From an uncultured Dehalococcoidales bacterium (GTDB taxonomy: Bacteria; Chloroflexota; Dehalococcoidia; GIF9; UBA5629): DNA of 52,640 bases. The translations under genes were made by a program, and so were the position numbers. Shown here piece by piece: positions 6,292 to 32,364 of the stretch (its first letter is position 1; the number at the start of each line of letters is the position of its first letter). The notes beneath the pieces were generated by a model. That model was given only the letters and a program-made list of their open reading frames with translations, had not been told where the DNA came from and made no database searches. The stretch is taken from assembly GCA_964509615.1 (NCBI GenBank), contig CAZDXZ010000001.1, forward strand, positions 1 through 52,640, written 5' to 3'.

Positions 6292-6308
6292 CTTACTGAG
6301 GAGAAGAA

Positions 6309-7451: not shown

Positions 7452-7493
7452 GCATCGGAAAAAGGACGAGACGGCCGCAAAAAGGATATCGAG

Positions 7494-8294: not shown

Positions 8295-8342
8295 TAAATA
8301 GTAATAAATAAACAGCTTATACAGGAATAGGAGGAACACCTG

Positions 8343-10988: not shown

Positions 10989-11024
10989 AAGTAAATTATG
11001 AGTATGTAGCTAAGGAGGCTAATT

Positions 11025-14371: not shown

Positions 14372-14419
14372 CAGCTGGGCCTGGCGGCTCGCAGCCGGCG
14401 CAGGATTAGACAAAATATA

Positions 14420-14453
14420 GGGGCTTCGCCGAAGCGAAGCCCCTTGATCTTTC
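14420..14453 (+). terminator. Rho-independent terminator closing the GRE operon
   Basis: GGGGCTTCGC-cgaa-GCGAAGCCCC, a perfect 10-bp stem (14420..14443), followed by the T-rich TTGATCTTTC. Confidence 0.7.
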
Positions 14454-14809: not shown

Positions 14810-15862
14810 ATGATGGCGAAAAAGATGTTGCTGGGCCTGGGCACCGACGAGTTGAAAAACCTGACGGCCGATCTCGGGCAGAAGAAGTTTCGTGGCAAAC
14901 AGGTGTCCGACTGGATATACAGGCGCGGCTGCCGGCAGGTCGACGATATGACCGATCTCCCGGCCCCCTTCAGGGCCGTGCTGGACGAGTCGTGGACGGT
15001 GGGAAGGTCATCAGTCAGGAATGTCAGCACGGGCAGGGACGGCACATTCAAACTGCTGCTGGTGCCTTTTTACGGCGACCTGGTGGAGACCGTGGGCATG
15101 CCGTATGATGACCGTTTCTCCTGCTGTGTGTCCACCCAGGTGGGATGCCCGGTGGCCTGTGCCTTTTGCGCTACAGGCGCCGACGGTTTCAAACGCAACC
15201 TGGCTGCGGGCGAGATAGTCGACCAGGTCCTGACCGTGGGAGATATCGCAGTCCGTAGAAAGATACTCGCTGATGAGGGAAGGGTCAGCCATGTTGTATT
15301 TATGGGAATGGGTGAACCGTTGCTTAATTACGATGCCACCCTGACCGCGCTGCGTCTGATCAATGAAGAGCTGAAGATAGGGATGCGCAATATAACGGTT
15401 AGCACGATCGGTTATGTTCCCGGTATATACCGGCTGGCGGCTGAAAATATGCAGTTCACGCTGGCGGTCTCGCTGCATGCCGCCTCGGACGCATTGCGCA
15501 GAAAGCTGGTGCCTGGCATGTCACGCTACCTGTTGAAGGATATAGTTGCAGCCTGCCAGCATTACGTCAACCAGACGGGCCGGCGGGTTACGTTCGAGTA
15601 CTGCCTGCTGAAAGGGATAAACAATAGTGCGGCGGAAGCGGCCGCCCTGGCCTCGCTGCTAAAAGGATTAAACTGCCACGTGAACCTCATCCCCTTTAAC
15701 GAGGTGCCGCACGGCAATTACAGGCATCCCGAAGCCCCGGCAATCGCTTTCTTCAGACAGGTGCTCGAGAGATCGAGCATAACCGTAACGCAGCGGGAGC
15801 AGAAGGGAGCGGGCATACAGGCGGCCTGCGGGCAGTTAGGCCGGCAATCCTTATCTAAATAA
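14810..15862 (+). CDS. rlmN: 23S rRNA/tRNA adenine-C2 methyltransferase RlmN (radical SAM)
   Basis: The track ORF 14444..15862 is over-extended. The RlmN-like sequence starts at ATG 14810 (MMAKKMLLGLGTDELKNL..FRGKQVSDWIY). Motifs CPVACAFCATG, GMGEPLLNY, and the C-terminal GAGIQAACGQL. Confidence 0.9.
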   Translation: MMAKKMLLGLGTDELKNLTADLGQKKFRGKQVSDWIYRRGCRQVDDMTDLPAPFRAVLDESWTVGRSSVRNVSTGRDGTFKLLLVPFYGDLVETVGMPYDDRFSCCVSTQVGCPVACAFCATGADGFKRNLAAGEIVDQVLTVGDIAVRRKILADEGRVSHVVFMGMGEPLLNYDATLTALRLINEELKIGMRNITVSTIGYVPGIYRLAAENMQFTLAVSLHAASDALRRKLVPGMSRYLLKDIVAACQHYVNQTGRRVTFEYCLLKGINNSAAEAAALASLLKGLNCHVNLIPFNEVPHGNYRHPEAPAIAFFRQVLERSSITVTQREQKGAGIQAACGQLGRQSLSK

Positions 15863-15907
15863 GTAGATATACGGATTGTCAAAGTCCCCGTCATGCTCCC
15901 ATCAAAC

Positions 15908-15935
15908 TTGACTTTACGAGTAACTATGTTACAAT
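15908..15935 (+). promoter_or_regulatory. sigma70-type promoter ahead of the acyl-CoA ligase array
   Basis: TTGACT (15908..15913), 16-nt spacer, TACAAT (15930..15935). Confidence 0.55.
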
Positions 15936-15959
15936 TGACCGGTCAATTAACGATTGACC
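15933..15959. promoter_or_regulatory. candidate operator: 16-bp perfect palindrome plus a third half-site
   Basis: AATTGACCGGTCAATT (15933..15948) overlaps the -10 hexamer. A further ATTGACC lies at 15953..15959. Confidence 0.5.
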
Positions 15960-16007: not shown

Positions 16008-17714
16008 ATGGATAAATACCCCTGGTTTAAGAATTATGATGAAGGTGTGCCTCGCACACTTGAGCCCTATCCCCCAACGACTATGATCGAGGTGGTCGAT
16101 GAATCGGCCCGAACCAAACCCTACAGGGCCATGTTCTATTTCAAGGGGCATAGGCTACTCTATTACGACTTTGTAAGGCAAAGCGATGCACTGGCCGCGG
16201 GCCTGGTTGCCCAGGGCATAAAGAAGGGGGACCGCGTGGCCCTGCTCCTTCCCAATTCGCCGCAGATGGTGCTGGCTTTTCAGGGCATCTGGAAGGCAGG
16301 CGCAATAGCCGTCCCTATCAACCCACTCTACACCGAACACGAGCTCAAGCATGCACTAATGGAGGTGGGCGCCTCGGCGGTGATAGTGCTGAATCCCTTC
16401 TACGCAGCCATCAAGAATATACAGTCCGGCACCGTGATCAGGACCGTTATTGCCACCAGCATCAAGGAATACCTGCCGGCGCACCTGGGCCTGCTTTTCA
16501 CACTGGCCAGGGAGAAGAAGGAGGGCTACCGCATATCTCTTCAGAAGGGTGACGTCTGGTTTCAGGAACTGCTGCGGCGGCACAGAAACGATCCCAGACC
16601 TGATATTCATGTCGGGCCGGAGGATGCAGCCGTGATACTTTTCAGCGGAGGTACCACCGGCACTCCCAAGGGCGCCGTCGGCACACACGGCGCCCTCATT
16701 ATGACCGCCATGCAGATCAATGCCTGGCTCGGCCCTGTGCTTGAGAAATGGGAGGACAAAGTGGCACTGACCATGCCGCTATTCCACGTTTTTGGATGTG
16801 CGGGTGCTCTGGGGACCGCCATGATAAACCGTTCGTCCTGCATCCTTATTCCCAACCCGCGAGATATCACCGACGTGGTCAAAAGCATCAGGCAGTACAA
16901 GCCGGCCTTCATGCCCGGCGTACCCACGTTTTACATCGGCATTATGAACCATCCCCTGGTGAAATCGGGCAGGATTAAGTTGTCGGGCATGAAAATTTGC
17001 ATCGTGGGCGCCGCCCCTCTGATGGCCGATACCAAGAAACAGTTTGAAAGCATGACGGGCGGAAGGCTGCTGGAAGGCTATGCCATGACGGAGACCATGC
17101 AGGCGGCGACGCTCAATCCTGTGATGGGTGTTAATAAAGAAGGCTCGGTGGGCATGCCTCTGCCCGACGTGATTATTAAGATCGTGGATGCCGAGACCGG
17201 CCGGGACAGCATGAAAGCCGGCGACCTTGGCGAGATATGTTTTAAGGCCCCGAACCTGATGACCGGCTACTGGAACAGGCCACAGGAAACAGCGGATATG
17301 CTGAGGGACGGCTGGCTGTATACCGGCGACATCGGTTATCTCGATAATGACGGGCACCTCTTCCTGCACAGCCGCAAGAAGGATATAATCAAGACCAGCG
17401 GTTTTCAAGTCTGGCCGCGCGAGGTAGAGGAGGTGTTGCATGAGCACCCGGCGGTTATGGAGGCCAGCGTAGCCGGCGTGCCCGATCAATACCAGGGCGA
17501 AGCGGTTAAGGCATGGGTAGTTTTGAATAGCGGGATGAAATGTTCGGCCGATGAGCTCAGGGAGCATTGCCGCTCCAAACTATCGGCTTACAAGGTGCCC
17601 CGGTACATAGAATTTAAAGATAATCTGCCTAAAACCCAGATTGGCAAGATTCTGAGGAGGGTTTTGATCGAGGAAGAGAAAGGCAAACAGGGAGGGGAGA
17701 CCGATAACACATAG
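16008..17714 (+). CDS. FadD-like AMP-dependent acyl-CoA ligase, array paralog 1
   Basis: Start trimmed to ATG 16008 (MDKYPWFKNYDEGVP), matching the N-termini of the paralogs. ILFSGGTTGTPKG; LPKTQIGKILRR. Confidence 0.88.
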   Translation: MDKYPWFKNYDEGVPRTLEPYPPTTMIEVVDESARTKPYRAMFYFKGHRLLYYDFVRQSDALAAGLVAQGIKKGDRVALLLPNSPQMVLAFQGIWKAGAIAVPINPLYTEHELKHALMEVGASAVIVLNPFYAAIKNIQSGTVIRTVIATSIKEYLPAHLGLLFTLAREKKEGYRISLQKGDVWFQELLRRHRNDPRPDIHVGPEDAAVILFSGGTTGTPKGAVGTHGALIMTAMQINAWLGPVLEKWEDKVALTMPLFHVFGCAGALGTAMINRSSCILIPNPRDITDVVKSIRQYKPAFMPGVPTFYIGIMNHPLVKSGRIKLSGMKICIVGAAPLMADTKKQFESMTGGRLLEGYAMTETMQAATLNPVMGVNKEGSVGMPLPDVIIKIVDAETGRDSMKAGDLGEICFKAPNLMTGYWNRPQETADMLRDGWLYTGDIGYLDNDGHLFLHSRKKDIIKTSGFQVWPREVEEVLHEHPAVMEASVAGVPDQYQGEAVKAWVVLNSGMKCSADELREHCRSKLSAYKVPRYIEFKDNLPKTQIGKILRRVLIEEEKGKQGGETDNT

Positions 17715-17750
17715 CTGCCACTGTAAAAATTATGAAGGGAGGTTGTATCG

Positions 17751-19451
17751 ATGACAGAATCATATCCCTGGTTTAAAAGTTATGATGCGGGGGTGCCGCA
17801 CACACTGGAACCTTATCCGCAGGTGACTTTTCTGGACGTGGTGGAAGACGCGGCAAAAAAAGGGCCCGATCACAGGTTCCTTATTTTCAAGGACAGGACT
17901 ATCAGCTACAGCGAACTGGTCCGGCTCTACTCGGTGTTTGCCGCGGCCCTCAAGGCCAACGGTGTGAAAAAGGGCGACCGAGTTGCCATATTGCTGCCCA
18001 ACTGCCCGCAGGGCTTTATCAGCTCGTTTGCAGCCTGGAAGGCCGGAGCAATACCTGTACCGCTCAATCCCATGTACACCGAGCACGAATTGCAGCACTG
18101 CCTCAAGGAGTGCGGCGCCGAGGTTGCCATCGTGCTGACGCCTTTTTACGCCACCGTTAAGAAGATCCAGCCCCAGACCAAGCTAAGATTGATCATAGCT
18201 ACCAATATCAAGGAATACCTCCCGCCTTTCCTGGCCACCATGTTCACGCTGCTCAAGGAGAAGAAGGAAGGGCACAGAATTGCTATCCAGGCGGGCGACC
18301 TGCGGATGGCAGAGCTCATGAGCAAGCATGCCGCCGACCCGGCGCCCGATAACAAGCCCGGCTCAGAAGATGTTGCGCTGCTGCTTTTCAGCGGAGGCAC
18401 GACGGGCGTTCCCAAGGGCGTCATTATAACGCATAAATGCCTGGTCGCAGAGGCCTGGCAGCTCAAGGTCTGGAATGACAGCGTCCTGACGGAATGGGAC
18501 GATGTGGTTATGATGATTATGCCGCTCTTCCACGTCTACGGCTTTGCGGGTGTGATGGGCACGTCCATCATGGGACACAATCCGCTGGCCGTTGTTCCCA
18601 ATCCGCGCGATCGAGATGATGTGGTAAAGACCATTAATAAAGTGAAACCGGCATATTTTCCGGCAGTCCCCACGATGTTCATTGCGTTGTTGGAGCACAA
18701 GCTGGTGAAGGCAGGGAAGGTAGATTTCAAATCCATGAAGCTATGCGTAGCATCGGCGGCGCCTTTGCTGCCTGAGACCAAGCGACGCTTTGAGGATTTG
18801 ACCGGCGGCAAGCTGATTGAGGGTTATGGTATGACGGAGGTGACCGCAGCCATCACACTTGGCCCGGTTGAGGGAAAATGGACGCCCGGATCGGCCGGCA
18901 TTCCTCTGCCTGATGTTATTCTACGTATCGTGGACGTTGAAACGGGGGAGAAAGACATGCCGCTGGGGACGGAGGGTGAGATCATCGCCAGGTGTCCTCA
19001 GGTGATGGTGGGCTACTGGAACAGGCCGGAGGCCACGGCGGAGATGATCCGCAACGGTTGGCTGTATACAGGAGATATCGGCTATCTCAACGATGAAGGT
19101 TGCCTCTTCATCACGTCGCGCAAAAAGGAATTGATCAAGCCGGGCGGCTTCCAGGTCTGGCCGCGCGAGGTTGAAGAGTGTATAAGCACCTATCCCAAGG
19201 TGGCGGAGGTGGGAGTGGCGGGGATTCCCGATGCGTACCAGGTCGAGGCCGTCAAAGCTTGGGTGGTGTTGCGCGAGGGAGAAACTGCTACGGTGGAGGA
19301 GATTCAAGCACACTGCCGTGAGAAACTGATAGCCTACAAGGTGCCCAAGCATATCGAATTCAGGACCGAATTGCCCAAGACAATGGTGGGCAAGATACTG
19401 AAACGTGTACTCGTTGAGGAGGAGATAGCCAGACAAAAAGCGGCGAAGTGA
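17751..19451 (+). CDS. FadD-like AMP-dependent acyl-CoA ligase, array paralog 2
   Basis: MTESYPWFKSYDAGVP; LLFSGGTTGVPKG; LPKTMVGKILKR. RBS GGGAGG. Confidence 0.9.
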   Translation: MTESYPWFKSYDAGVPHTLEPYPQVTFLDVVEDAAKKGPDHRFLIFKDRTISYSELVRLYSVFAAALKANGVKKGDRVAILLPNCPQGFISSFAAWKAGAIPVPLNPMYTEHELQHCLKECGAEVAIVLTPFYATVKKIQPQTKLRLIIATNIKEYLPPFLATMFTLLKEKKEGHRIAIQAGDLRMAELMSKHAADPAPDNKPGSEDVALLLFSGGTTGVPKGVIITHKCLVAEAWQLKVWNDSVLTEWDDVVMMIMPLFHVYGFAGVMGTSIMGHNPLAVVPNPRDRDDVVKTINKVKPAYFPAVPTMFIALLEHKLVKAGKVDFKSMKLCVASAAPLLPETKRRFEDLTGGKLIEGYGMTEVTAAITLGPVEGKWTPGSAGIPLPDVILRIVDVETGEKDMPLGTEGEIIARCPQVMVGYWNRPEATAEMIRNGWLYTGDIGYLNDEGCLFITSRKKELIKPGGFQVWPREVEECISTYPKVAEVGVAGIPDAYQVEAVKAWVVLREGETATVEEIQAHCREKLIAYKVPKHIEFRTELPKTMVGKILKRVLVEEEIARQKAAK

Positions 19452-19515
19452 TGATCCGAAAAGGTAATTAGGCGTTTGGCGCTTAATCATAATAACAAAT
19501 CAAAGGAGGCTTATC

Positions 19516-21207
19516 TTGTCCGACAAAAGATGGTTAAAAAACTATGACAAAGGGGTTCCCGCTTCGCTGGAACCCTATCCGCAGAAGACGCTTGTCGACT
19601 ATGTGGATGATGCGGTTAAAGAGCATCCCGATTACCCCATGGTGCTGTTTAAGAAGAGGAAGATGTCATATGCCGAGATCCAGAAGCTTAGCGACGAGTT
19701 CGCGGCTGTCCTGGTGGCCAAAGGCGTTAAAAAGGGAGACCGCGTTGCCCTGATCATGCCCAATTGCCCCCAGGCCATCATCTGCCGCTGGGGCGCATGG
19801 AAAGCCGGCGCCATCCTGGTACACATGAATCCCATGTACACCGAGTCCGAGCTCGAGCATGCCCTCAAGGACTGCGGCGCTGAGACTGTGGTAGTGCTGA
19901 CATTGTTCTACAATACGGTCAAGAAGCTGCAGCCGAGGACCAAATTGAAGCTGGTCATAGCTACAAGCATTAAGGACTACCTTCCCCCGGTGCTCAAGGT
20001 GCTTTTCACCCTGGCCAAGGAGAAGAAGGAAGGACATCGCATCGCCCTGCAATCCGGCGATTTCTGGCTGGCCGAGCTGATTAAGTCCCAGGCCGGAGCG
20101 AAACGGCCTGATGTGAAAGTGCTCCCCAGTGACGATGCCCTGATACTTTTCTCCGGCGGCACGACCGGCACGCCCAAGGGCGTGGTGGGAACGCATCATT
20201 CCCAGGTTATCACGGGACTGCAGTTCAGCTCCTGGTTCGGTGAGATAGTCGAGCCTTACAAGGACGTGATGATGCTGGTGCTGCCGCTTTTCCACTCATT
20301 CGCCACATATGCCGTAATGAGCACGGCAATCGTCGGGCATGCCGCGATGTCGCTGGTGCCCAACCCGCGCGACCGCGACGACGTGGTTGCCACCATCAAC
20401 CACGATAAGCCGTCGTTCTTCCCCGCCGTACCCGCCATGTTCATCGGACTGCTGGAGCATCCGGCGGTCAAGGCGGGCAAGGTGGACTTCAGCTCGATGA
20501 AATGCTGCAACTCGGGCGCGGCCCCGCTGCTGTATGAGACAAAGAAACGCTTTGAAGACCTGACCGGTGGGCGCATCGTGGAAGGATACGGCCTGACCGA
20601 GTCTACCATGGCCTGCTGCTGCACTCCTTTCCGCGGAACATGGAAGCAGGGCTCCGTGGGCATGCCGCTCCCGGACGTTATAATCAGGATCGGCGATATC
20701 GAGACCGGCGAGGGCGACATGCCTGCCGGCAAGGAGGGGGAGATCGTCTTCAACGCTCCGCAGTTGATGGTCGGGTACTGGAACAGGCCCGAGGAGACCA
20801 AGGAGATGCTGCGTAATGGCTGGCTGTATACGGGCGATGTCGGTTATATGGATGATGACGGTTACGTTTTCATCACGTCGCGCAAAAAGGACCTGATTAA
20901 GCCCAGCGGATTCCAAGTATGGCCGAGGGAAGTTGAAGAGGTCATCAGCAGCCATCCGGCGGTGGCCGAGGTCAGCGTCGCCGGCATTCCCGATGCCAAG
21001 CAGGGCGAAGCTGTAAAAGCCTGGGTGGTGCTGGAAGCCGGCAAGACGGCTACGGTGGAGGAGATAAAGGCCTGGTGCAAGGAGAAGCTGGTCGCCTACA
21101 AGATACCCAAGTTCGTGGAGTTCCGCAGCGACCTGCCCAAGACAATGGTGGGCAAGGTGCTGCGAAGGGTCCTTCAGGAGGAAGAAGCGGCCAAAAGCAA
21201 GAAGTAA
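19516..21207 (+). CDS. FadD-like AMP-dependent acyl-CoA ligase, array paralog 3
   Basis: TTG start after AAGGAGG. ILFSGGTTGTPKG; LPKTMVGKVLRR. Confidence 0.9.
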   Translation: MSDKRWLKNYDKGVPASLEPYPQKTLVDYVDDAVKEHPDYPMVLFKKRKMSYAEIQKLSDEFAAVLVAKGVKKGDRVALIMPNCPQAIICRWGAWKAGAILVHMNPMYTESELEHALKDCGAETVVVLTLFYNTVKKLQPRTKLKLVIATSIKDYLPPVLKVLFTLAKEKKEGHRIALQSGDFWLAELIKSQAGAKRPDVKVLPSDDALILFSGGTTGTPKGVVGTHHSQVITGLQFSSWFGEIVEPYKDVMMLVLPLFHSFATYAVMSTAIVGHAAMSLVPNPRDRDDVVATINHDKPSFFPAVPAMFIGLLEHPAVKAGKVDFSSMKCCNSGAAPLLYETKKRFEDLTGGRIVEGYGLTESTMACCCTPFRGTWKQGSVGMPLPDVIIRIGDIETGEGDMPAGKEGEIVFNAPQLMVGYWNRPEETKEMLRNGWLYTGDVGYMDDDGYVFITSRKKDLIKPSGFQVWPREVEEVISSHPAVAEVSVAGIPDAKQGEAVKAWVVLEAGKTATVEEIKAWCKEKLVAYKIPKFVEFRSDLPKTMVGKVLRRVLQEEEAAKSKK

Positions 21208-21220
21208 TTACGTGAGTAAG

Positions 21221-21250
21221 GCTGTCCCCGGCCTGAGGGCCGGGGACAGC
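21221..21250 (+). other. GC-rich perfect hairpin between paralogs 3 and 4 (no T-tract)
   Basis: GCTGTCCCCGGCC-tgag-GGCCGGGGACAGC, 13-bp stem, followed by ttgaaaat. Confidence 0.6.
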
Positions 21251-21297
21251 TTGAAAATACAGTCACGGCATAAAATATAAAATTTGGAGGTTGTTGC

Positions 21298-22986
21298 ATG
21301 GCAGAGTATCGCTGGTTAAAGAATTACGATCCCGGTGTCCCGAAAACACTTGAACCCTATCCTCAGAAGACGCTCCTTGACTATACGGATGAGGCTGTCA
21401 AAGAGCACCCCGACTATCCCATGGTGCTGTTTAAGAAGAGGAAAATGTCTTATGCTGAGATCCAGAAACTGAGCGACGAGTTTGCCGCGGCCCTGGCGGC
21501 TAACGGTGTTAAAAAGGGAGACCGCGTGGCACTGATCATGCCTAACTGTCCGCAGGCCATCATCTGCCGCTGGGGGGCATGGAAGGTCGGCGCCATACTG
21601 GTACATTTAAATCCGATGTACACCGAAAGCGAGCTGGAACATGCTCTCAAGGATTGTGGGGCTGAGACTGCAGTAGTGCTGACCATGTTCTACAAGAATT
21701 TTAAGAAGATACAGCCGCGCACAAACGTGAAACTGGTAATCGCCACCAGCATCAAGGACTACCTTCCGCCCGTGCTCAACGTGCTCTTCACCCTTCTTAA
21801 GGAGAAGAAAGAGGGGCACTATGTTGAACTGGAGAAGGGAGATGTGTGGCTGGTTGACCTGATCAAGCAGTACGCCGGCGCCAAGAGGCCGGATGTAAAA
21901 GTGACGCCTCAGGATTACGCCCTCATACTATTCAGTGGCGGCACAACCGGCACGCCCAAGGGCGTGATAGGCAATCATCATTCGATGGTGATAACCGCCC
22001 TGCAGTATTTAGCATGGTTCGGCGGCCAGATCGAAAGCTATAAAGATATCATCATGGCCAGCCTGCCGCTTTTTCATGTGTACAGCACCTATGGTGTCAT
22101 GAGCACTGCAGTAGTATGCCACGTAGCGATGTCACTGGTGCCCAATCCGCGCGACCGGGAAGACCTGATTGCCACTATTCAACACGATAGGCCGACTTTC
22201 TTCCCTGCAGTTCCGGCACTGTACATCTCATTGCTGGCGCATCCCAAGGTCATAGCCGGTAAAGTGGATTTCAAATCGATGAAGTTCTGCGTTTCGGGCG
22301 CCGCTCCGCTGCTGTCCGAAACCAAGAAGCAGTTTGAGGGACTGACCGGCGGTCGCATAGTCGAAGGCTACGCTATGACCGAGGCCACCATGGCGTCCTG
22401 CGTTACCCCCTATCTGGGCAAGTGGAAGGAGGGGTCCACCGGTATGCCATTGCCCGATGTGATCGTCAGGATCGGCGATCTGGAGACCGGTGAGGGCGAT
22501 CTGCCCGCCGGCACAGAAGGCGAAATCGTTATCAAAGCGCCGCAGCTCATGGTGGGATACTGGAACAGGCCGGAAGAGACCAAAGAGATGCTGCGGGACG
22601 GCTGGCTGTACACCGGCGATATCGGGTATGTGGATGATGACGGATACCTGTTCATCACCTCGCGCAAGAAGGACCTGATCAAACCCAGCGGCTTCCAGGT
22701 GTGGCCACGCGAGGTAGAGGAAGTTATTAGCACCAATCCAAATGTGGCGGAGGTCTGCGTGGCCGGTGTGCCGGATGCCAAGCAGGGGGAGGCGGTTAAA
22801 GCCTGGGTGGTGTTGCAGACCGGCAAGACCGCTACAGCGGAGGAGATACAGGCCTGGTGCAGGGACAAGCTGGTAGCCTATAAGATCCCCAAATTTGTTG
22901 AGTTCCGAACCGAATTGCCCAAGACAATGGTGGGCAAGGTGCTGAGAAGGGTTCTGGTGGAGGAGGAGAAAGCCAAAGCCAAATAG
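21298..22986 (+). CDS. FadD-like AMP-dependent acyl-CoA ligase, array paralog 4 (closest relative of paralog 3)
   Basis: MAEYRWLKNYDPGVP; ILFSGGTTGTPKG; LPKTMVGKVLRR. RBS TGGAGG. Confidence 0.9.
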   Translation: MAEYRWLKNYDPGVPKTLEPYPQKTLLDYTDEAVKEHPDYPMVLFKKRKMSYAEIQKLSDEFAAALAANGVKKGDRVALIMPNCPQAIICRWGAWKVGAILVHLNPMYTESELEHALKDCGAETAVVLTMFYKNFKKIQPRTNVKLVIATSIKDYLPPVLNVLFTLLKEKKEGHYVELEKGDVWLVDLIKQYAGAKRPDVKVTPQDYALILFSGGTTGTPKGVIGNHHSMVITALQYLAWFGGQIESYKDIIMASLPLFHVYSTYGVMSTAVVCHVAMSLVPNPRDREDLIATIQHDRPTFFPAVPALYISLLAHPKVIAGKVDFKSMKFCVSGAAPLLSETKKQFEGLTGGRIVEGYAMTEATMASCVTPYLGKWKEGSTGMPLPDVIVRIGDLETGEGDLPAGTEGEIVIKAPQLMVGYWNRPEETKEMLRDGWLYTGDIGYVDDDGYLFITSRKKDLIKPSGFQVWPREVEEVISTNPNVAEVCVAGVPDAKQGEAVKAWVVLQTGKTATAEEIQAWCRDKLVAYKIPKFVEFRTELPKTMVGKVLRRVLVEEEKAKAK

Positions 22987-23013
22987 AGGATCATTCTTAC
23001 TCAAAATAATAGA

Positions 23014-23043
23014 GACCGGTCCCGGCACGTGCCGGGACCGGTC
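23014..23043. other. 30-nt perfect palindrome 13 nt upstream of the paralog 5 start
   Basis: GACCGGTCCCGGCACGTGCCGGGACCGGTC. No T-tract follows it. It contains the self-complementary octamer GACCGGTC at both ends. Confidence 0.6.
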
Positions 23044-23056
23044 AGAAGGATGCGAA

Positions 23057-24700
23057 TTGACTGAATATCTGTGGTACAAAAGCTATGATGCGGGTGTCCC
23101 CCGCTCTCTTGAGCCATACCCCCGCAAGACCATTATGGATGTCCTGCTGGAAGCCAGAAACGAGCGTCCTGATTATCCCATGATCATCTTTCAGGACAGG
23201 AAGCTCAGCTACAGAGAAATAGTCAATGAAAGCGATGCGATGGCAGCGGCGCTGGCTTCCATGGGTGTGAAAAAGGGTGACCGCATAGCTGTACTTTTCC
23301 TGAACTGTCCGCAGGAGTACATTATCTTCTTCGCGGCGTGGAAGCTGGGCGCTATCGTAGTTCCTCTAAACCCGCTGTATACCGAGTTCGAGCTGGAAGC
23401 GAGGTTGAATGATATCGATGCCCAAACAGCCGTGGTGCTCAATCTCTGGTATCCTATGGTCAAAAGATTGCAGAAAAAAACCAGTGTTCGCAATGTCATG
23501 CTGGCCGAGTTCGACGATTACACGGCGCAGAATAAGGAGAAGGCGGCGACCGCTATTGAGCCCGGCGACAACTGGTGGCTCGATCTCACCAGGAAATACG
23601 CGGGGAAACCGGTCCCCAGGGTGGAAGTCGGGCCGGACGATACGGCCCTGATCCTGTTCTCTGGAGGTACCACCGGCACGCCCAAGGGCGTTATGGAGAG
23701 CCACAAGTCCCTGGTCATCACAGGCATGCAGGTAGAAGCCTGGTTCCGCGAGATTTCACTCTGGTGGGACGAGAAATTCCTGGTGCCGCTTCCTCTTTTC
23801 CACGCCTTCGGCATCTATGCCAGCTTCGGCATGGCGCTGGTCCAGCACAATATATCGGTGCTCATCGCCAACCCGCGCGACATCAAGGGCATGATCGATA
23901 CCATCAGGAACCAGGGCATAACCAATATGGGCGCCGCTCCCACCATGTTCATCTCGATGCTGGAATATCCCGAGCTAAAAATGGGCGACCTCAAGACCAT
24001 ACGCATGGCTACGTCCGGCGCGGCGCCGCTGATGCGTGAGACCAAGGACCAGTTTGAAAAGCATATCAGCGGCCGTTTGACGGAGGGATATGCGCTGACC
24101 GAGAGCGGCATGGCCATGCTCACCACGCCTGCCAAAGGCAAGTGGAAGGAGGGTTCGATCGGCCTGCCCCTGCCCGATACCATTGTACGCATCGTGGATA
24201 TAGAAAGCGGGAATTCAGACATGCCGGTCGGCCAGCCGGGAGAGATCATCATCAAGGCGCCGCAGTTGATGCAGGGCTACTGGAAACGTCCGGAAGAGAC
24301 CAGAGAGATCCTGCGGGACGGCTGGCTCTATACGGGCGATATCGGTTACATGGACGAGGATGGATATATCTTTCTGACCTCACGCAAGAAGGACCTGATA
24401 AAATGCGGAGGGTTCCAGGTCTGGCCGCGCGAGGTTGAAGAGATACTGCAGGAGCACCCGGCCGTGGCTGAAGTCTGCGTGGGAGGTATACCCGATCCCA
24501 GGCAGATGGAGGCAGTCAAGGCCTGGATAGTGCTGAAAGAGGGAAAAAGCGTCACGGCGGAGGAGCTGCAAAAATATTGCCGTGAGAAGCTCACAGGCTA
24601 CAAAGTGCCGAAGCATTTCGAGTTTCGCAAGGATTTGCCCAAGACGTTTGTGGGCAAGGTACTGCGCCGTGTATTACAGGATGAGGAGAAAAACAAGTAG
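23057..24700 (+). CDS. FadD-like AMP-dependent acyl-CoA ligase, array paralog 5 (shortest, 547 aa)
   Basis: TTG start (MTEYLWYKSYDAGVP); ILFSGGTTGTPKG; LPKTFVGKVLRR. Confidence 0.88.
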   Translation: MTEYLWYKSYDAGVPRSLEPYPRKTIMDVLLEARNERPDYPMIIFQDRKLSYREIVNESDAMAAALASMGVKKGDRIAVLFLNCPQEYIIFFAAWKLGAIVVPLNPLYTEFELEARLNDIDAQTAVVLNLWYPMVKRLQKKTSVRNVMLAEFDDYTAQNKEKAATAIEPGDNWWLDLTRKYAGKPVPRVEVGPDDTALILFSGGTTGTPKGVMESHKSLVITGMQVEAWFREISLWWDEKFLVPLPLFHAFGIYASFGMALVQHNISVLIANPRDIKGMIDTIRNQGITNMGAAPTMFISMLEYPELKMGDLKTIRMATSGAAPLMRETKDQFEKHISGRLTEGYALTESGMAMLTTPAKGKWKEGSIGLPLPDTIVRIVDIESGNSDMPVGQPGEIIIKAPQLMQGYWKRPEETREILRDGWLYTGDIGYMDEDGYIFLTSRKKDLIKCGGFQVWPREVEEILQEHPAVAEVCVGGIPDPRQMEAVKAWIVLKEGKSVTAEELQKYCREKLTGYKVPKHFEFRKDLPKTFVGKVLRRVLQDEEKNK

Positions 24701-24717
24701 CGGCTGAGAATGAGAGG

Positions 24718-24753
24718 CGCCCGGTTAATTGAATTCGGTTAGCCGGGCGTTTT
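24718..24753 (+). terminator. hairpin with T-tract after paralog 5
   Basis: CGCCCGG (24718..24724) pairs with CCGGGCG (24743..24749) and is followed by TTTT. Confidence 0.45.
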
Positions 24754-24789
24754 AAAATAGGCAGTAATTATTGTTTGAGGAGGTTTAAA

Positions 24790-26451
24790 GTGGCGGATTA
24801 TCCCTGGTACAAATCATACGACCAAGGAGTACCTCATTCCATCCAGCCCTATCCCGAGATTACCCTGCTGGATATCATCGCAGAGACCACGCGCGAAATG
24901 CCCGAGCACACGTTCATGTATTTCAAGGACAGGTATTTCTCATACAAGGAGGCGACCAGGCTGTTCGAGGTTATGGCTTCGGCGCTGATCGCCAAAGGGG
25001 TAAAGCCGGGGGACCGCGTGGCCAGCATGCTGCTGAATACGCCGCAGCAGCTGACAGCCGCATTCGGCACCATGAAGGCCGGCGCCATTTTCGTACCGCT
25101 TAATCCACTGTACAACGAAGATGAGCTGATACATGCGCTGACCACCGTGGAAGCCGAGATTATCATTGTCTGGGATCTGCTGTACGCAAACATCAAGAAG
25201 GTGCAGCCCCGCACCAAGCTCAAGCTGGTCATCGCCACCTCGCTGGAAGACTACATGCTGCCCGAGGCGAAGAAGCCGCATACCATGCAGCTGGAAAAGG
25301 GCGATATGTGGATGGATGAGCTGATGGAGCAGCATGCCAATGATCCTGCTCCCAATGTTAAACCGGGTGTAAATGACACAGCCCTGATACTGTTCAGCGG
25401 AGGGACGACCGGGGCCCCCAAGGGCGCCATGCTTTCTTTCAAGAACATGCTGGCCGTCGGACTGCAGACCAATGCCTGGAACAAATCGGGCATGGTCACC
25501 CCCGACGACTATACCATGGCGCTGATGCCCATGTTCCATGCCTACGGCTTCAACGGTGTTATCGGCAGTTCGATCGGCAACCGCAACCCTCTGGCGATCG
25601 TAGCCAATCCGAGAGACCTTGATGACGTGATTGCGACAATCAAGAAGGTCCGTCCCGGATCGATGCCCGGTGTGCCGACGCTCTTCATCGGTCTGATGGA
25701 GCATCCGGAGGTCAAGGCGGGCAAGGTGGATTTCTCATGTTTGAAGTACTGTCTCTCCGGCGCCATCCCGCTGATGGTTGAGACCAAGCAAAGGTGGGAG
25801 GCCATGACCGGCGCCCCTATTCTCGAGGCCTATGGCCTGACGGAATCCACGGTTGTATTCACCGTGGGCCCGCTCAAGGGACAGTGGAAGGAAGGAGCGG
25901 TTGGACTACCCCTGCCCGACGTCATAATTAAATTTATGGACGTCGCGGATCCCGACAGAGAGCTGCCTTACGGCGAGGAAGGCGAGGTAGTGGGCAAGGG
26001 TCCTCAGATCATGCAGGGATACTGGAATAATCCTAAGGGAACCAGTGAGATGGTCAAGGACGGCTGGTTGTACACCGGCGATATCGGTTATATGGACAAG
26101 GACGGATACCTTTACCTGACATCGCGCAAGAAGGACCTGATCAAGCCCAGCGGCCACCAGGTATGGCCCAAGGAAGTGGAAGAGGTCCTGGCAACCCATC
26201 CCGCCGTGGCCGAGGCATGCGTGGCGGGGATACCGGACGCCAAACAGGTCGAGGCGGTAAAGGCCTGGGTGATACTGCTGCCCGGGCAGAAAGCAACTGA
26301 AGAGGAGCTTCAGGCCTATTGCAGGGACAAGCTGACCGCCTACAAGGTACCCAAGTTCATTGAATTCCGCGACGCATTGCCCAAGACACTGGTCGGTAAA
26401 ATACTGAGAAGGGTGCTGCAGGAGGAAGAAAAGACCAAGTCATCTAAATAA
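24790..26451 (+). CDS. FadD-like AMP-dependent acyl-CoA ligase, array paralog 6
   Basis: The track start TTG 24775 lies inside the RBS GAGGAGG. The GTG at 24790 gives VADYPWYKSYDQGVP, matching the paralogs. ILFSGGTTGAPKG; LPKTLVGKILRR. Confidence 0.88.
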   Translation: MADYPWYKSYDQGVPHSIQPYPEITLLDIIAETTREMPEHTFMYFKDRYFSYKEATRLFEVMASALIAKGVKPGDRVASMLLNTPQQLTAAFGTMKAGAIFVPLNPLYNEDELIHALTTVEAEIIIVWDLLYANIKKVQPRTKLKLVIATSLEDYMLPEAKKPHTMQLEKGDMWMDELMEQHANDPAPNVKPGVNDTALILFSGGTTGAPKGAMLSFKNMLAVGLQTNAWNKSGMVTPDDYTMALMPMFHAYGFNGVIGSSIGNRNPLAIVANPRDLDDVIATIKKVRPGSMPGVPTLFIGLMEHPEVKAGKVDFSCLKYCLSGAIPLMVETKQRWEAMTGAPILEAYGLTESTVVFTVGPLKGQWKEGAVGLPLPDVIIKFMDVADPDRELPYGEEGEVVGKGPQIMQGYWNNPKGTSEMVKDGWLYTGDIGYMDKDGYLYLTSRKKDLIKPSGHQVWPKEVEEVLATHPAVAEACVAGIPDAKQVEAVKAWVILLPGQKATEEELQAYCRDKLTAYKVPKFIEFRDALPKTLVGKILRRVLQEEEKTKSSK

Positions 26452-26491
26452 CTTCACACATAAAATAATAATTTCTTACAGGAGGACATGA

Positions 26492-28180
26492 ATGGCCGAG
26501 TATCCATGGTTCAAGCATTATGATGAGGGTGTGCCTAAAACGCTTCAACCGTATCCTGACAAGAGGCTTTACGAGGATGTTGCCGACGTAGCCAGAGAGA
26601 GGCCCGGGCAGAAGTTTATCTGGTTCAAGGGCAGGTGGATGACCTACAAGGAGGTTGACCATCTGAGCGACGTACTGGCTGCGGGCCTGGTAGCCCAGGG
26701 GGTTAAGAAGGGCGACCGCGTTGCCATGCTGATGCCCAACTCACCGAATATCGTCATCAGCCAGCTTGCCATCTGGAAGGCGGGCGCCATCTCTGTGCCC
26801 GTCAATCCGCTTTACAGCGAGGGCGAGCTCGAGTTTGCGCTCAAGGAATGCGGCGCGGAAGTCGCTATCGTCCTGACGGCGTTTTACGACCCTGTGAAGA
26901 AGATCCAGGGGCGCACCAATCTGCGGCTGCTAATCGTTACCAGCGTAAAAGAGTACCTGTCTCCCTTCGTAAAGACGATCTTCACCCTGTTTATGGAGAA
27001 AAAGCAGGGGCAGTACCTGGAAAAAGTGCAGGGTAACGATATCTGGCTGCAGGACCTGATGAAAAAGCATGCCGGCGATAAGAAACCCGATATAAAGGTG
27101 AGCGGAAAGGATACCGGACTGCTGCTGTTCAGCGGCGGCACGACCGGCACACCCAAAGCCGTGATGCTGAGCCATGAAGCCATCTTCATGAACGGTCGGC
27201 AGATACATTCGTGGTCCAAGCCACTGGCTACGGACTGGACGGATGCGCTTGTCCTGCTGATGCCCTTCTTCCATGTTTACGGCAATGTAATCCTGCTATC
27301 GACGGCCATAGCAGGCCGTTATCCCACGGCACTAATCCCCAATCCCCGCGAGGTCAAGGACGTTCTGGCTACGATCAAGAAGGTCAAGCCGGCCTTCTTC
27401 CCGGCCATTTCGGCCATCTTCATCGGGCTTATGAACAGGCCTGAGGTAAAATCGGGCAAGATCGATTTCAAGACAATGAAGTCGTCGGTGGCGGCGGCTG
27501 CGCCGCTTCTGCCGGAGACCAAGAGGCAATGGGAGGCCATGACGGGAGGCAAGATCGTGGAAGCCTACGGCCTCACGGAATCGGGCGTGCTGGCCATGGG
27601 TCCCTTCCTGGGCAAATGGAAGGAGGGGGCGGTCGGCATGCCTACGCCCGATACGGTCATCAAGATCGTCGATATCGACACTGGCAAGACAGAGCTCAAG
27701 CCAGGAGAGGCGGGTGAGATAATAGCCAGTGGGCCGCACATCATGCAGGGCTACTGGAACCGTCCTGAAGCAACAGCGGAGATGCTGCGCGACGGCTGGC
27801 TTTACACGGGAGACATCGGTTACATGGATGAGGACGGCTACCTTTTTATAACTTCCCGCAAGAAGGACCTGATCAAGCCCAGCGGCCATCAGGTCTTCCC
27901 CGTCGAGATCGAGGAGATCATAGCCCAGCATCCCGCCGTGCTCGAGGTGGGTGTGGCCGGTGTGCCCGATCCTGCCCAGGGCGAAGCTGTGAAAGCGTGG
28001 ATAGTTTTGAGGGATGAACAATCCTGTACTGTCGAGGAGATACAGGTTTTCTGCCGCGATAAACTGACCGCATACAAGGTGCCCAAGCACGTGGAGTTCC
28101 GTGATGCGTTGCCCAAGACCATGGTGGGCAAGGTACTGCGCCGTATATTGCAGGAGGAAGATAGAGCCAAGGGCAAGTAA
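26492..28180 (+). CDS. FadD-like AMP-dependent acyl-CoA ligase, array paralog 7
   Basis: MAEYPWFKHYDEGVP; LLFSGGTTGTPKA; LPKTMVGKVLRR. RBS AGGAGG. Confidence 0.9.
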   Translation: MAEYPWFKHYDEGVPKTLQPYPDKRLYEDVADVARERPGQKFIWFKGRWMTYKEVDHLSDVLAAGLVAQGVKKGDRVAMLMPNSPNIVISQLAIWKAGAISVPVNPLYSEGELEFALKECGAEVAIVLTAFYDPVKKIQGRTNLRLLIVTSVKEYLSPFVKTIFTLFMEKKQGQYLEKVQGNDIWLQDLMKKHAGDKKPDIKVSGKDTGLLLFSGGTTGTPKAVMLSHEAIFMNGRQIHSWSKPLATDWTDALVLLMPFFHVYGNVILLSTAIAGRYPTALIPNPREVKDVLATIKKVKPAFFPAISAIFIGLMNRPEVKSGKIDFKTMKSSVAAAAPLLPETKRQWEAMTGGKIVEAYGLTESGVLAMGPFLGKWKEGAVGMPTPDTVIKIVDIDTGKTELKPGEAGEIIASGPHIMQGYWNRPEATAEMLRDGWLYTGDIGYMDEDGYLFITSRKKDLIKPSGHQVFPVEIEEIIAQHPAVLEVGVAGVPDPAQGEAVKAWIVLRDEQSCTVEEIQVFCRDKLTAYKVPKHVEFRDALPKTMVGKVLRRILQEEDRAKGK

Positions 28181-28190
28181 ATTCTGACAG

Positions 28191-28225
28191 AAAGCGGCGG
28201 GAGCACACTCCCGCCGCTTTTTTTA
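28191..28225. terminator. bidirectional Rho-independent terminator shared by the ligase array and the convergent 28245..30530 gene
   Basis: AAAGCGGCGGGAG-caca-CTCCCGCCGCTTT plus a run of 7 T (28218..24), with an A-run on the left for the opposite strand. Confidence 0.85.
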
Positions 28226-28244: not shown

Positions 28245-30530
28245 TTAGCCGGGTCGAGTCCCGTTGGGGAGGCCTTGCTCCCGGCTTTTAATGAAGTGCA
28301 CGACCTCTTTCAGGCCAAAGGTTCCCTCCATCGGTCCCAGCCTGGATGCCGCCAGGGCGCCCATGGCATTAGCCAGCCTGGCGGCCTCGTATAGTGGCAG
28401 GTTATCGAGGTATCCGCTAATGAAACCGGCATCGAAGCAATCGCCCGCGCCGGTGGGGTCGACGGCATTCACCCTGAATCCAGGCACATCGAAGGAGGAC
28501 TCTCGGGTGTATACACGGCAGCCGCTGTCACCTTGTTTAAGCGCCACAATTTTCACACCCGACTCGATCAACCGCCGGCAGGCCATGTCGGCATCCTGCT
28601 CGTGCATCAGCAGGCCGGCCTCATTGCCGCTGGGAAGCACGATGTCGGCCAGGCGGACGATGGGAAGCAATATATTTCTGCACTCCTCGGCGGAGAGCAG
28701 TTCGGGCCTTAAATTGGGATCGAGGCTGACGCTGCCGCCGGATTCTTTGACCGCCTCGGCCATCGCCATGCAGGCGTCCCTGATAGAGCGGCTTATGGAT
28801 AGCGAGCAGCCCATAAGGTGTAAATGGCGGAAGGATCGCGTATATTCGACCGCCCGGGAGATGGGAGGCAGGCGGTCCGATGCCGTGCCTGCGATGTGAA
28901 AGATAAAGTTGCGCCCGCCATCCCTGTCATAGGCCACGAAGGCGCAACCGGTGGACCTTCCCCTGATTGAAGAGATGAGTTTCCCATCAATGCCGTCATC
29001 CGAGAATCTTTTCCTCAACAGACGGCCGAAGCCATCCTGCCCCAGCGAGCCCACGAAGCCCGTGCGTTTCCCGATACGAGCAGAGGCGTCCGCGAAGATG
29101 GCGGGTGCGCCGCTGGGGAACGGACCCATGAAGCGGCCGATTGTGTCCAGGGGCATATCGACCGACGGGCGCATTATCTCCACGATCAATTCGCCCGCCG
29201 TCAGCACCTGGCCCTCATCCCAGAAAGGCAGCCTGCTGCGGCGCCGGAATTCTTTTTCAAGCACAGGGATTGAGTCCTGCAAATTGAAAGCACGGCAGTA
29301 CTTCAATATCTGTTGCGAGATGCTCTCAACCACGTACCGGTGTGGATCGAAGCCGTCTTTACTGAGGTTGGCATAAAGGCGTCTGCGCGCTTTCACCACT
29401 TCCCTGTCCGTCCATATGTAGCGTGCTCCGGTCTTGAGCAACCAGGTCTGCCTTTTATCAAATAGTCTCTCGAAAGGTATGCCGGACTCGTCAGGGTGCA
29501 GCCATTTACGCCACCGGCCGGAGCGGATAACCGCCTGTTTGAGCGATTCTTTGAAGTCTGAAGGGACTGCGGCGCTGCCGCCGATTGAGGACTTCTCCCT
29601 CGATTCAAGTTCGAAGAGGGCGTCGCATTCCACCTCGGTAAATTCGGGGCCGACATTGGCGCCCCCCATTTTGCTGGCCGGGTAGTCGGAGGGATTATCC
29701 ACGTTATCTGTGTAGTGTCCTTTCAGCACCATGCCGTAGGCGCCGGCGATAGCGTAGAGCTCCTTCGCCACCTGCGGATCGAACAGGGTGGTATCCAGGT
29801 CCGTTCCAACCTTTCCCACGATGAAGCACGGCCATGCCCGGCTTAAACCTTCCCGTGTCATACGTTTGCGCAATCCCGCCAGGAAACCGCTGAACATGTC
29901 TTCGTCGGCCAGGCCGCCCTTGACCTCCTCGGTGCCCACCTCGTATGCGACCGGGGGCAGCCCGTGCTTGATGCGGAATGACTCGCACTGCCCGATAAGT
30001 TGGACTGTCCTGTCTATGATCGTATTGAGCTCGAGTTTCCCGCCGGGCGGCAGGTCGCGGTCCACCGTTGGATCGATGTGAAGCAGGTCGAAACCTGCTG
30101 CAATAGCCGACTCCAGCGATGTCCGGAGCGCTCTCATTGTGCGGCCATAGGGCCATTTTTCGGTGGTATGCCTGTCCCGCAGCCAGGGACCGGCATGGTC
30201 TATCCCCAGTAGAATAGGGCCTTTAAAACCGACTTTCCGGGCGGTGCGCCTGACCAGAGCGACGAAGTTGGCATGGCTCCATCCCGTGTAGCCTCCGTCA
30301 AGGTCGACCTGATTGAGCGTAGCGGCGAAAAATATGGGGCAGTCCGCCTGCCTGGCAGCAAGCAGGGCCGCCTCAACCACCGAAAGGGAGTTGGCCGAAA
30401 CGGCCAGCAGCGTGCGCCAGGGCGCACCCTCTTTGGCCGACAGCCGGGAGAACGAGCGCAGTATAGCCTGGCACAGGGTTAACCCGCTGTGTGCCGACTG
30501 GCGCCTTGAATAGGAAACATCAGCTGTCAT
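28245..30530 (-). CDS. fusion protein: GatZ/KbaZ/AgaZ-like (tagatose-6-phosphate-kinase-named family) N-terminal domain + PfkB-family sugar kinase C-terminal domain (761 aa)
   Basis: N-terminal half: AVSANSLSVVEAALLAARQADCPIFFAATLNQVD..GGYTGW...LGIDHAGPW. C-terminal half: PfkB signatures GSLGQDGFG and VDPTGAGDCFDAGFISGYL. Confidence 0.75.
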   Translation of the reverse strand: MTADVSYSRRQSAHSGLTLCQAILRSFSRLSAKEGAPWRTLLAVSANSLSVVEAALLAARQADCPIFFAATLNQVDLDGGYTGWSHANFVALVRRTARKVGFKGPILLGIDHAGPWLRDRHTTEKWPYGRTMRALRTSLESAIAAGFDLLHIDPTVDRDLPPGGKLELNTIIDRTVQLIGQCESFRIKHGLPPVAYEVGTEEVKGGLADEDMFSGFLAGLRKRMTREGLSRAWPCFIVGKVGTDLDTTLFDPQVAKELYAIAGAYGMVLKGHYTDNVDNPSDYPASKMGGANVGPEFTEVECDALFELESREKSSIGGSAAVPSDFKESLKQAVIRSGRWRKWLHPDESGIPFERLFDKRQTWLLKTGARYIWTDREVVKARRRLYANLSKDGFDPHRYVVESISQQILKYCRAFNLQDSIPVLEKEFRRRSRLPFWDEGQVLTAGELIVEIMRPSVDMPLDTIGRFMGPFPSGAPAIFADASARIGKRTGFVGSLGQDGFGRLLRKRFSDDGIDGKLISSIRGRSTGCAFVAYDRDGGRNFIFHIAGTASDRLPPISRAVEYTRSFRHLHLMGCSLSISRSIRDACMAMAEAVKESGGSVSLDPNLRPELLSAEECRNILLPIVRLADIVLPSGNEAGLLMHEQDADMACRRLIESGVKIVALKQGDSGCRVYTRESSFDVPGFRVNAVDPTGAGDCFDAGFISGYLDNLPLYEAARLANAMGALAASRLGPMEGTFGLKEVVHFIKSREQGLPNGTRPG

Positions 30531-32264: not shown

Positions 32265-32364
32265 ATCGATGGTCCTCCTGACACAATCATAATCTAAATA
32301 GCCGACAAAGGTAATTATAATCGAAACAAATTGCCTGCAAAACCGGCTGAAGCTATACTTTAAT

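Follow-up and report, generated by a model that had tools for sequence, protein, structure and literature searches.

What does a bacterium gain from seven acyl-CoA ligase genes of a single family placed head to tail? The question is raised by positions 16008-28180 of a 52,640-nucleotide stretch of DNA from an uncultured Dehalococcoidales bacterium (GenBank assembly GCA_964509615.1, contig CAZDXZ010000001.1; the whole stretch is referred to below as the window), where seven consecutive plus-strand open reading frames (ORFs), all intact, encode FadD-like AMP-forming acyl-CoA ligases. The array is real and conserved, and as a tandem expansion of a well-known family of enzymes it is unusually large. 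The interpretation towards which we lean is that of a repressor-controlled operon of seven FadD-branch acyl-CoA synthetases, old duplicates that would accept different subsets of acids and act jointly in their capture. The array ligases are designated L1 to L7, and the ligase of a neighbouring glycyl radical enzyme (GRE) operon is designated L0; three-digit names such as L084 denote loci among the 102 that were fetched for comparison.

The original prediction of seven intact, same-strand ligase genes, separated from L1 to L7 by spacers of 36, 64, 90, 70, 89 and 40 nt, agrees exactly with the ORFs and the domain matches. A GGAGG-type ribosome-binding site lies ahead of every array gene, and a repeat finder independently returned seven copies with a period of 1720-1782 nt and 60-82% nucleotide identity. 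The start proposed earlier for L6, a GTG at 24790 situated eight bases past AGGAGG, is correct and gives a protein of 553 aa; an upstream TTG would give 558 aa. An invariant GGAGT supports the ATG of L1 at 16008, as does the promoter's position.

All seven proteins, as well as L0, contain full-length PF00501 and PF13193 domains. In the array proteins, PF00501 is matched at E-values of 1e-78 to 1e-91 (profile positions 2-384 of 384) and PF13193 at 1e-18 to 1e-22 (positions 1-76 of 76). The P-loop SGGTTGxPK and the motifs GYGxTE, YTGD, SRKKDLIK and PKTxxGK(I/V)L(R/K)R are found in all seven and are invariant within all orthogroups, with PKA in place of PKG in L7. The P-loop, TGD motif and catalytic lysine that had been claimed for every copy are thus present throughout, but the N-terminal motif YPW(F/Y)K is looser in L3-L5, where it reads (Y/K)(P/R/L)W(F/Y/L)K. 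Fatty acyl-CoA synthetases (FACS) carry a signature motif of about 25 residues, DGWLHTGDIg..d..G.l.I.dRkKd; in all seven array proteins it takes the form (D/N)GWLYTGD(I/V)GY(L/M/V)(D/N)x(D/E)Gxh(F/Y)hx SRKK(D/E)hIK (h, hydrophobic). Both domains and the core motifs place all seven in the ANL superfamily, and the AlphaFold2 (AF2) model of L2 (pLDDT 88.9, pTM 0.88) has the canonical two-domain ANL fold. In Foldseek searches this model aligned with 4-coumarate-CoA ligase (4CL) in its AMP- and CoA-bound form and with benzoate-CoA ligases (TMq 0.80-0.84), so that L2 is predicted to adopt the canonical ANL fold in the thioester-forming state.

Curated FadD/long-chain fatty acid (LCFA)-CoA ligase models score best for all seven proteins, yet at 380-475 bits against cut-offs of 766-1116. 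The best NCBIfam scores are 437-475 bits for PRK05605 and PRK06710 (cut-offs 766 and 1116), the FadD model PRK08974 gives 380-419 bits (cut-off 884), and none of the seven reaches an NCBIfam equivalog cut-off for FadD/LCFA-CoA ligases. The proteins resemble the members of these models in Pfam architecture, in the A3, A5, A7, A8 and A10 motifs, in the FACS-signature-like segment and in the length of the N-terminal extension; FadD/LCFA-CoA ligases are, however, encoded by a single gene, while the array comprises seven tandem copies that differ in gate and tunnel residues. By these scores they would be FadD-like proteins and not equivalogs of any named enzyme. The closest solved structures (about 25-30% identity) are those of plant 4CLs, feruloyl-CoA synthetase, malonyl- and oxalyl-CoA synthetases and Archaeoglobus fulgidus FadD-1. 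Among them, plant 4CL (3A9U/3A9V/3NI2, 5BSR) and, with them, bacterial benzoate-CoA ligases (4EAT, 4RM3) match best (226 bits), at 24-30% identity; these enzymes have neither an N-terminal extension of the FadD type nor the helix of residues 159-172, and the resemblance is one of fold and not of membership. The lack of an NCBIfam equivalog and the distance of the PDB relatives, at most 30% identical, rule out naming a substrate.

The arrangement is widespread in one lineage. Three other assemblies (JGI 3300022556, JGI 3300025136 and Logan SRR5214704) encode an identical L4 protein flanked by the same L3 and L5, and eight further JGI contigs, recovered in a metagenome scan with the L5 orthogroup, have the same order at 77-97% amino acid identity: GRE activase, rlmN, L1 to L7, a GatZ/PfkB fusion gene and a CoA-disulfide reductase (CoADR) gene. 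At least ten metagenome assemblies from related Dehalococcoidia, all independent, show the gene order of the array. The 90% cluster to which L4 belongs comprises 54 members (NCBI, JGI, ENA and Logan), several of them from NCBI metagenome-assembled genomes (MAGs) named Dehalococcoidia bacterium, and the clusters of the window's MetRS and GRE likewise include such MAGs. The array is located in the core chromosome of an uncultured member of the Dehalococcoidia (Chloroflexota), since the rest of the window is made up of housekeeping genes (MetRS, FtsH, NDK, TsaB-like, polyprenyl synthase, TP-methylase and two-component sensors), composition is uniform over the window, and several cluster members come from Dehalococcoidia MAGs. 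No tRNAs were found in the 52.6-kb window.

Among the closest relatives in species-representative genomes, tandem sets of comparable size are rare, in line with the original prediction. Of the 80 best loci in a scan of such genomes (GTDB), none of them from the array-bearing lineage, 76 hold one ligase within 10 kb, four hold two and none holds three or more; the comparison data for the array itself were drawn from metagenome contigs and exact-protein look-ups. A literature search for described Dehalococcoidia ligase paralog arrays found none. Among relatives, copy number at the same site after rlmN ranges from two to seven, and rlmN is the upstream neighbour of every array found (L084, L087, L089, L091-L095, L098 and L102). 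L084 (GCA_016927965.1) has rlmN, six ligases and then a convergent CoADR/rhodanese gene, in L087 (an ENA contig) rlmN is followed by at least four ligases up to the contig end, and L085 (a JGI contig) has at least five. L089 (GCA_049510995.1) has only two, the first truncated, within a backbone that is kept whole (PD40, DsbD_2, rlmN ... CoADR, two unknown genes, LysE and an IMPDH-like gene). The short contigs L097, L100 and L102 show gene orders without L4, one of them also without L2; L4 is absent from L084 as well.

In a neighbour-joining tree, genes at matching positions group across genomes, L1, L5, L6 and L7 with the orthologues given in Table 1 and L2 with the second genes of the other arrays. 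Pairwise and phylogenetic comparison therefore show copies that are diverged and orthologous by position, with L0 standing apart. Gene birth and death mark the L3/L4 clade, which has three subclades and includes single-copy genes of other genomes. One of these, L088_1, lies in a beta-oxidation cluster with acyl-CoA dehydrogenases, SCP-x-type thiolases and their DUF35 partners, a MaoC dehydratase and CoA transferases; another, in L004, lies among three alpha/beta hydrolases. Because the 80 closest species-representative loci hold one or two ligases, the array represents an expansion, in place and specific to one lineage, of a FadD-like gene of the ordinary Chloroflexota kind. Repeated tandem duplication of one ligase gene 3′ of rlmN would have produced it, from an ancestor probably resembling the L3/L4 type, which is widespread in Chloroflexota and elsewhere occurs in beta-oxidation clusters. 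After these old duplications, the order would have become fixed and each copy would have come under strong purifying selection. The orthologue of L1, intact in the window, lacks the entire C-terminal domain and the catalytic lysine in L093 (3232-4599), L098 (3224-4591), L089 (8570-9976) and L090 (8537-9976), where it ends at about residue 456-479; this could be either recurrent decay of L1 or a protein consisting of the N-domain only.

The array appears to form a self-contained transcription unit, since a terminator lies before rlmN, the promoter and its palindrome are conserved and unique, and a terminator follows L7. The promoter-like site upstream of L1 consists of a -35 element ACTTGAC, 17 nt and an extended -10 element TGnTAnAAT, with the perfect palindrome TTGACCGGTCAA immediately after it. 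In ten loci, among them the distant L084 (8140-8179), L089 (8460-8499) and L087, the spacers between rlmN and L1 share an invariant promoter-palindrome core within variable surrounding sequence, with the palindrome variants TTGGCCAGTCAA and TTGACCAGTCAA. Across all 102 fetched loci, the pattern TTGRCCRGTCAA occurs only at the array promoter site. The site is probably an extended -10 promoter with an overlapping operator; transcription would start at this one conserved promoter, and TTGACCGGTCAA is probably bound by a fatty-acid- or acyl-CoA-sensing regulator whose gene lies elsewhere.

Within the unit, GC-rich stem-loops separate L3 from L4 and L4 from L5. Across nine loci, pairing in the former is kept through changes on both sides at 5 of 14 pairs, and the latter has compensatory changes at 4 of 13 pairs. 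A less conserved, terminator-like hairpin and a weak promoter-like site lie in the L5/L6 spacer. A search of the spacers and the leader for known RNA elements (Rfam, E-value at most 1) yielded nothing beyond a spurious CsrC-like match, which fell on the terminator. The stem-loops are typical of intercistronic stabiliser or attenuator elements and may serve unequal expression; together with the L5/L6 hairpin, they would probably set the relative mRNA levels of promoter-proximal and promoter-distal genes.

The original prediction had joined the array to the GRE operon upstream as one catabolic island for many chain lengths or isomers; on this reading, the seven ligases would activate acids that the GRE pathway processes or produces. 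The GRE unit comprises a MarR gene on the minus strand and genes for a DsbD_2 membrane protein, L0, an NMO/FabK-like reductase, an enoyl-CoA hydratase, an 881-aa fusion of a CrtI/amine-oxidase-like flavoprotein with a ferredoxin reductase and 2Fe-2S module, the GRE and its activase. It is a real unit and encodes CoA-dependent enzymes (L0, the hydratase and the reductase); both in the window and in all eight seven-copy relatives, it adjoins the array and shares its strand. A half-similar motif, TTGACTCGTCA, also lies upstream of L0, and the string TTGACNNGTCA occurs in the window only there and at the array operator, with 0.25 occurrences expected by chance; the motif may have arisen by chance, or the same regulator might recognise it as a half-site. 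Against these points, a strong bidirectional hairpin terminator and the housekeeping gene rlmN intervene, and the array has its own promoter. The GRE unit adjoins the array only in the seven-copy lineage: the arrays of L084 (six copies), L087 (at least four) and L089 (two) occupy the same site, but upstream they have arsenic-resistance or other genes in place of a GRE operon. The operon thus appears to have been inserted in the seven-copy lineage where relatives carry arsenic-resistance genes, and the array promoter and operator are older than this insertion, because they are conserved in the loci that have no GRE operon. An operator shared by the two units was rejected, as the full palindrome occurs once in the whole window and is missing upstream of L0, where there is just the half-similar site. 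The GRE operon also has a ligase of its own in L0, which the original prediction had counted as an eighth paralog but which belongs to another subfamily. With neither a shared transcription unit nor co-location conserved across genomes, a single island is not supported and is unlikely, although the two units could cooperate functionally. Adjacency to a striking operon should not be read as functional linkage.

The GRE itself is an eliminase of the PFL2/glycerol-dehydratase type; it falls short of every NCBIfam equivalog, and its best PDB match is 1R8W (461 bits). X-succinate synthase GREs have been reported for some Dehalococcoidia MAGs (PMC7673041). An assignment as alkyl- or benzyl-succinate synthase was rejected for the GRE of the window, whose best matches are B12-independent glycerol/diol dehydratases and other eliminases. 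Beside the MarR gene, a 390-aa protein has two C-terminal 4Fe-4S ferredoxin motifs and an N-terminal stretch of 280 residues without a family match.

Are the seven copies merely redundant, sharing one specificity and kept for dosage, robustness or different expression conditions? They belong to one subfamily with identical catalytic motifs, relatives have two to seven of them, and L1 is truncated in some. The copies are, however, diverged, with paralog identities of 49-63% at the amino acid level (80% for L3/L4) and 57-76% at the nucleotide level. Dosage amplifications are normally young and nearly identical. The synonymous divergence of the paralogs is saturated (dS 1.2-2.2), and the duplications are therefore old, even the youngest, which gave rise to L3 and L4 (dS 1.3, dN 0.14). 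The idea that L3 and L4 have recently undergone gene conversion or concerted evolution was rejected, as sliding-window synonymous differences (pS) stay at 0.48-0.70 throughout, with no near-identical tract.

Every orthogroup is, moreover, conserved separately. Compared with orthologues at dS of about 0.8-1.1, dN/dS is 0.03-0.07 for the array genes (Table 1) and 0.081-0.145 for flanking genes (GRE activase, rlmN, GatZ/PfkB, CoADR and two unknown genes), and strong purifying selection acts on every paralog in many genomes. Because the ratio of every copy lies below those of its neighbours, each copy is more strongly constrained than the flanking genes, which argues against redundancy and decay. 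Added to the fixed differences at gate and tunnel positions described below, these figures make redundancy quite improbable.

The differences between copies were mapped on an alignment of 69 sequences from the seven orthogroups (7-13 closely related sequences each), in which 116 of 570 columns have one and the same residue throughout all groups. Fourteen others reach at least 85% fixation inside every orthogroup and yet differ between groups, with at least four residues represented (34, 88, 175, 231, 234, 265, 268, 269, 333, 350, 366, 382, 496 and 545 in L2 numbering). In the FACS of Thermus thermophilus (ttLC-FACS; 1ULT/1V25/1V26), Trp234 of the gate motif 226-VPMFHVNAW-234 sits no more than 4.5 Å from the myristoyl group and acts as a gate to the fatty-acid tunnel (PMC3198602, PMC6122825). 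The corresponding G motif xPxFHxxxx is also found in the array, and by alignment Trp234 maps to position 265, a paralog-specific residue four positions past the motif-A4 histidine. In L1 to L7 it is C, F, T, T, I, F and N, each 100% fixed within its orthogroup, and no copy has the tryptophan of ttLC-FACS, which was not among the 59 PDB sequences matched at E-values of at most 1e-40.

A second reference is the substrate pocket of Populus 4CL1, formed by Tyr236, Gly306, Gly331, Pro337 and Val338 (PMC8430942). By alignment, positions 263, 336, 360 and 367 of L2 correspond to Tyr236, Gly306, Gly331 and Val338, and position 366, one of the 14 columns, to Pro337. Of the six pocket positions defined in the literature, two are among the 14 columns (hypergeometric P=0.008). 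The figure becomes three of seven (P=4e-4) when Lys303, which we take to be a further pocket residue, is included at position 333 (I, V, N, V, T, L and V in L1 to L7). Pocket residues are thus not identical across the paralogs.

Divergence is greatest around residues 220-280, 160-200 and 20-60, which partly overlaps the segments named in the original prediction (140-200 and 230-260), although the N-terminal stretch had not been among them. L3 and L4 differ most in codons 160-300 (non-synonymous differences, pN, 0.20-0.24), the stretch that holds group-specific positions. L5 lacks 11 residues and L6 lacks 10 in the helix at about residues 157-170 (residues 159-172 of the L2 model), whose sequence IKEYLPPxLxxxFTLLKEKKEGH shows conservation of at least 90% across the broader Chloroflexota subfamily, a difference that also stands against redundancy. 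L5 and L6 are not sister clades, yet both have deletions in this helix, and their orthologues share them.

This pattern is as expected if the paralogs have partitioned substrates, and it supports such a partition only indirectly. The diversified battery proposed originally is borne out as far as intact, diverged copies with different pocket positions and invariant catalytic motifs are concerned; distinct specificities would be their probable consequence. In the operon that we favour, each enzyme would convert different free carboxylic acids to acyl-AMP and then to acyl-CoA, spending ATP, and the acid subsets would differ in chain length, branching or ring content. The residues of the acyl tunnel, including the gate, would have become different between copies and fixed within each lineage, and the seven enzymes together would give the cell access to many kinds of scavenged acids, to be fed into beta-oxidation or reused in lipids. 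Several points weigh against this reading. The test of group-specific positions involves few positions and orthogroups of closely related sequences, and the pocket positions were mapped through a distant sequence alignment and not a ligand-bound structure. The C-terminal domain of L1 is lost in three relatives, so that the copies cannot all be indispensable. Next to the array, the window has neither a regulator gene nor beta-oxidation genes. Since no equivalog cut-off is reached and identity to the nearest solved structures does not exceed 30%, the label "fatty acid" is itself an extrapolation. A broader version, in which a regulated broad-spectrum carboxylate capture module with seven separable specificities and hairpin-tuned stoichiometry would explain a scavenging lifestyle, is tentative and falls just short of an even call.

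FadD-like enzymes include acyl-acyl carrier protein (ACP) synthetases and fatty acyl-AMP ligases (FAALs), and the array could in a similar manner activate fatty acids, exogenous or released, for the synthesis or remodelling of membrane lipids. The lack of adjacent beta-oxidation genes and the core-chromosome site among housekeeping genes would fit such an anabolic or recycling role. However, no ACP, polyketide synthase (PKS), nonribosomal peptide synthetase (NRPS) or acyltransferase gene was found within 10 kb in the window or in L001, L084, L087 and L089, and single-copy relatives occur in beta-oxidation or hydrolase contexts. The motifs of the C-terminal domain are canonical, and the L2 model superposes best on the thioester-forming, CoA-bound conformation of 4CL, which argues weakly against a FAAL-type assignment. 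The anabolic role is accordingly improbable. Acs1 of Syntrophus aciditrophicus is an AMP-forming ligase that works in the ATP-making direction. By analogy, the array of this energy-limited anaerobe might run in reverse as a multi-substrate module for substrate-level phosphorylation, making ATP from AMP, pyrophosphate and varied acyl-CoA fermentation intermediates, but we regard this as very improbable. An assembly or binning artefact (a collapsed or expanded repeat, or a chimeric contig), against which the original prediction had itself warned, has a negligible probability: tandem repeats in a metagenome-type assembly are a known source of mis-assembly, but an assembler could not have confused copies of at most 76% nucleotide identity, no exact run common to any two of which exceeds 32 nt. 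Identical order and junctions also recur in more than ten independent assemblies from JGI, NCBI, ENA and Logan, and GC content and skew are uniform across the array.

A working model for a tandem set partitioned by specificity is the linked fadD2-fadD1 pair of Pseudomonas aeruginosa (PA3300/PA3299), whose products prefer shorter and longer fatty acids, respectively, according to genetics and kinetics (PMC2958839). As in the array, these are adjacent, same-strand FadD paralogs. The pair, however, comprises two genes, reportedly on two transcripts, in an aerobic proteobacterium, and its specificities were measured; the array comprises seven genes, to which specificities are assigned here by inference. 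Mycobacteria have about 34-36 FadD genes of the FACS and FAAL classes with diversified substrates, mostly dispersed and many paired with PKS genes. The array resembles this expansion as a large, diversified paralog family, but it is arranged head to tail in one operon, without a PKS or ACP partner.

The enzyme family and its reaction are already well known, and the array extends existing knowledge without overturning any. In anoxic sediments and engineered anoxic systems, Dehalococcoidia are abundant but remain uncultured and poorly understood, and a deeply conserved, strongly selected operon of seven enzymes points to the uptake and activation of many different organic acids as a central trait of the lineage. 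A natural series of seven related enzymes with mapped pocket differences should also be useful for deriving specificity rules of FadD-type enzymes and for biocatalysis.

Table 1. Coordinates of the ligase array, its predicted regulatory elements and neighbouring features in the window.
Feature	Position	Strand	Details
390-aa protein	1841-3013	-	beside the MarR gene
GRE operon	3064-14371		own unit upstream of rlmN; domain matches
Half-similar motif	4447-4457		upstream of L0
L0, GRE-operon ligase	4591-6291		PF00501 + PF13193; 32-38% identical to array copies, another subfamily
Hairpin terminator after GRE activase	14419-14444		bidirectional; separates GRE activase from rlmN
rlmN, 23S rRNA methyltransferase	14810-15862	+	350 aa; Pfam RlmN_N + Radical_SAM
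Array promoter and putative operator	15907-15946	+	best promoter-like site of the region, 70 nt before L1
Perfect palindrome	15935-15946		within the preceding feature
L1, FadD-like acyl-CoA ligase	16008-17714	+	568 aa; gate position Cys; dN/dS 0.069; orthologues L084_1, L085_1, L087_1
L2, FadD-like acyl-CoA ligase	17751-19451	+	566 aa; gate position Phe; dN/dS 0.032; orthologues 75-94% identical
L3, FadD-like acyl-CoA ligase	19516-21207	+	563 aa; gate position Thr; dN/dS 0.042
Intercistronic stem-loop L3/L4	21220-21251	+	14-bp GC-rich stem without U-tract; consensus fold about -32 kcal/mol
L4, FadD-like acyl-CoA ligase	21298-22986	+	562 aa; gate position Thr; dN/dS 0.073; youngest duplicate
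Intercistronic stem-loop L4/L5	23014-23043	+	13-bp GC-rich stem without U-tract; about -26 kcal/mol; abuts L5 ribosome-binding site
L5, FadD-like acyl-CoA ligase	23057-24700	+	547 aa; gate position Ile; dN/dS 0.033; orthologues L084_4, L087_4
Hairpin and TTTT L5/L6	24716-24753	+	terminator-like, less conserved; spacer sequence
Weak promoter-like site	24729-24758		L5/L6 spacer
L6, FadD-like acyl-CoA ligase	24790-26451	+	553 aa; gate position Phe; dN/dS 0.056; orthologue L084_5
L7, FadD-like acyl-CoA ligase	26492-28180	+	562 aa; gate position Asn; dN/dS 0.036; orthologue L084_6
Intrinsic terminator closing the array	28189-28222	+	15-bp stem and T-run; between convergent genes
GatZ/PfkB fusion gene	28245-30530	-	761 aa
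CoADR-like gene	30573-32270	-	convergent with the array

Two minus-strand genes follow the array in the window. The first encodes a fusion of GatZ/KbaZ-like and PfkB tagatose-kinase-like domains; it lies between the array and the CoADR gene and is confined to the seven-copy lineage, being absent in L084 and L089. The second encodes a CoADR-like flavoprotein with a C-terminal rhodanese domain and is found, in convergent orientation, downstream of every array, for example at 18827-20515 in L084 and 11775-13463 in L089. Its presence may be mere synteny or may reflect a functional link related to CoA.

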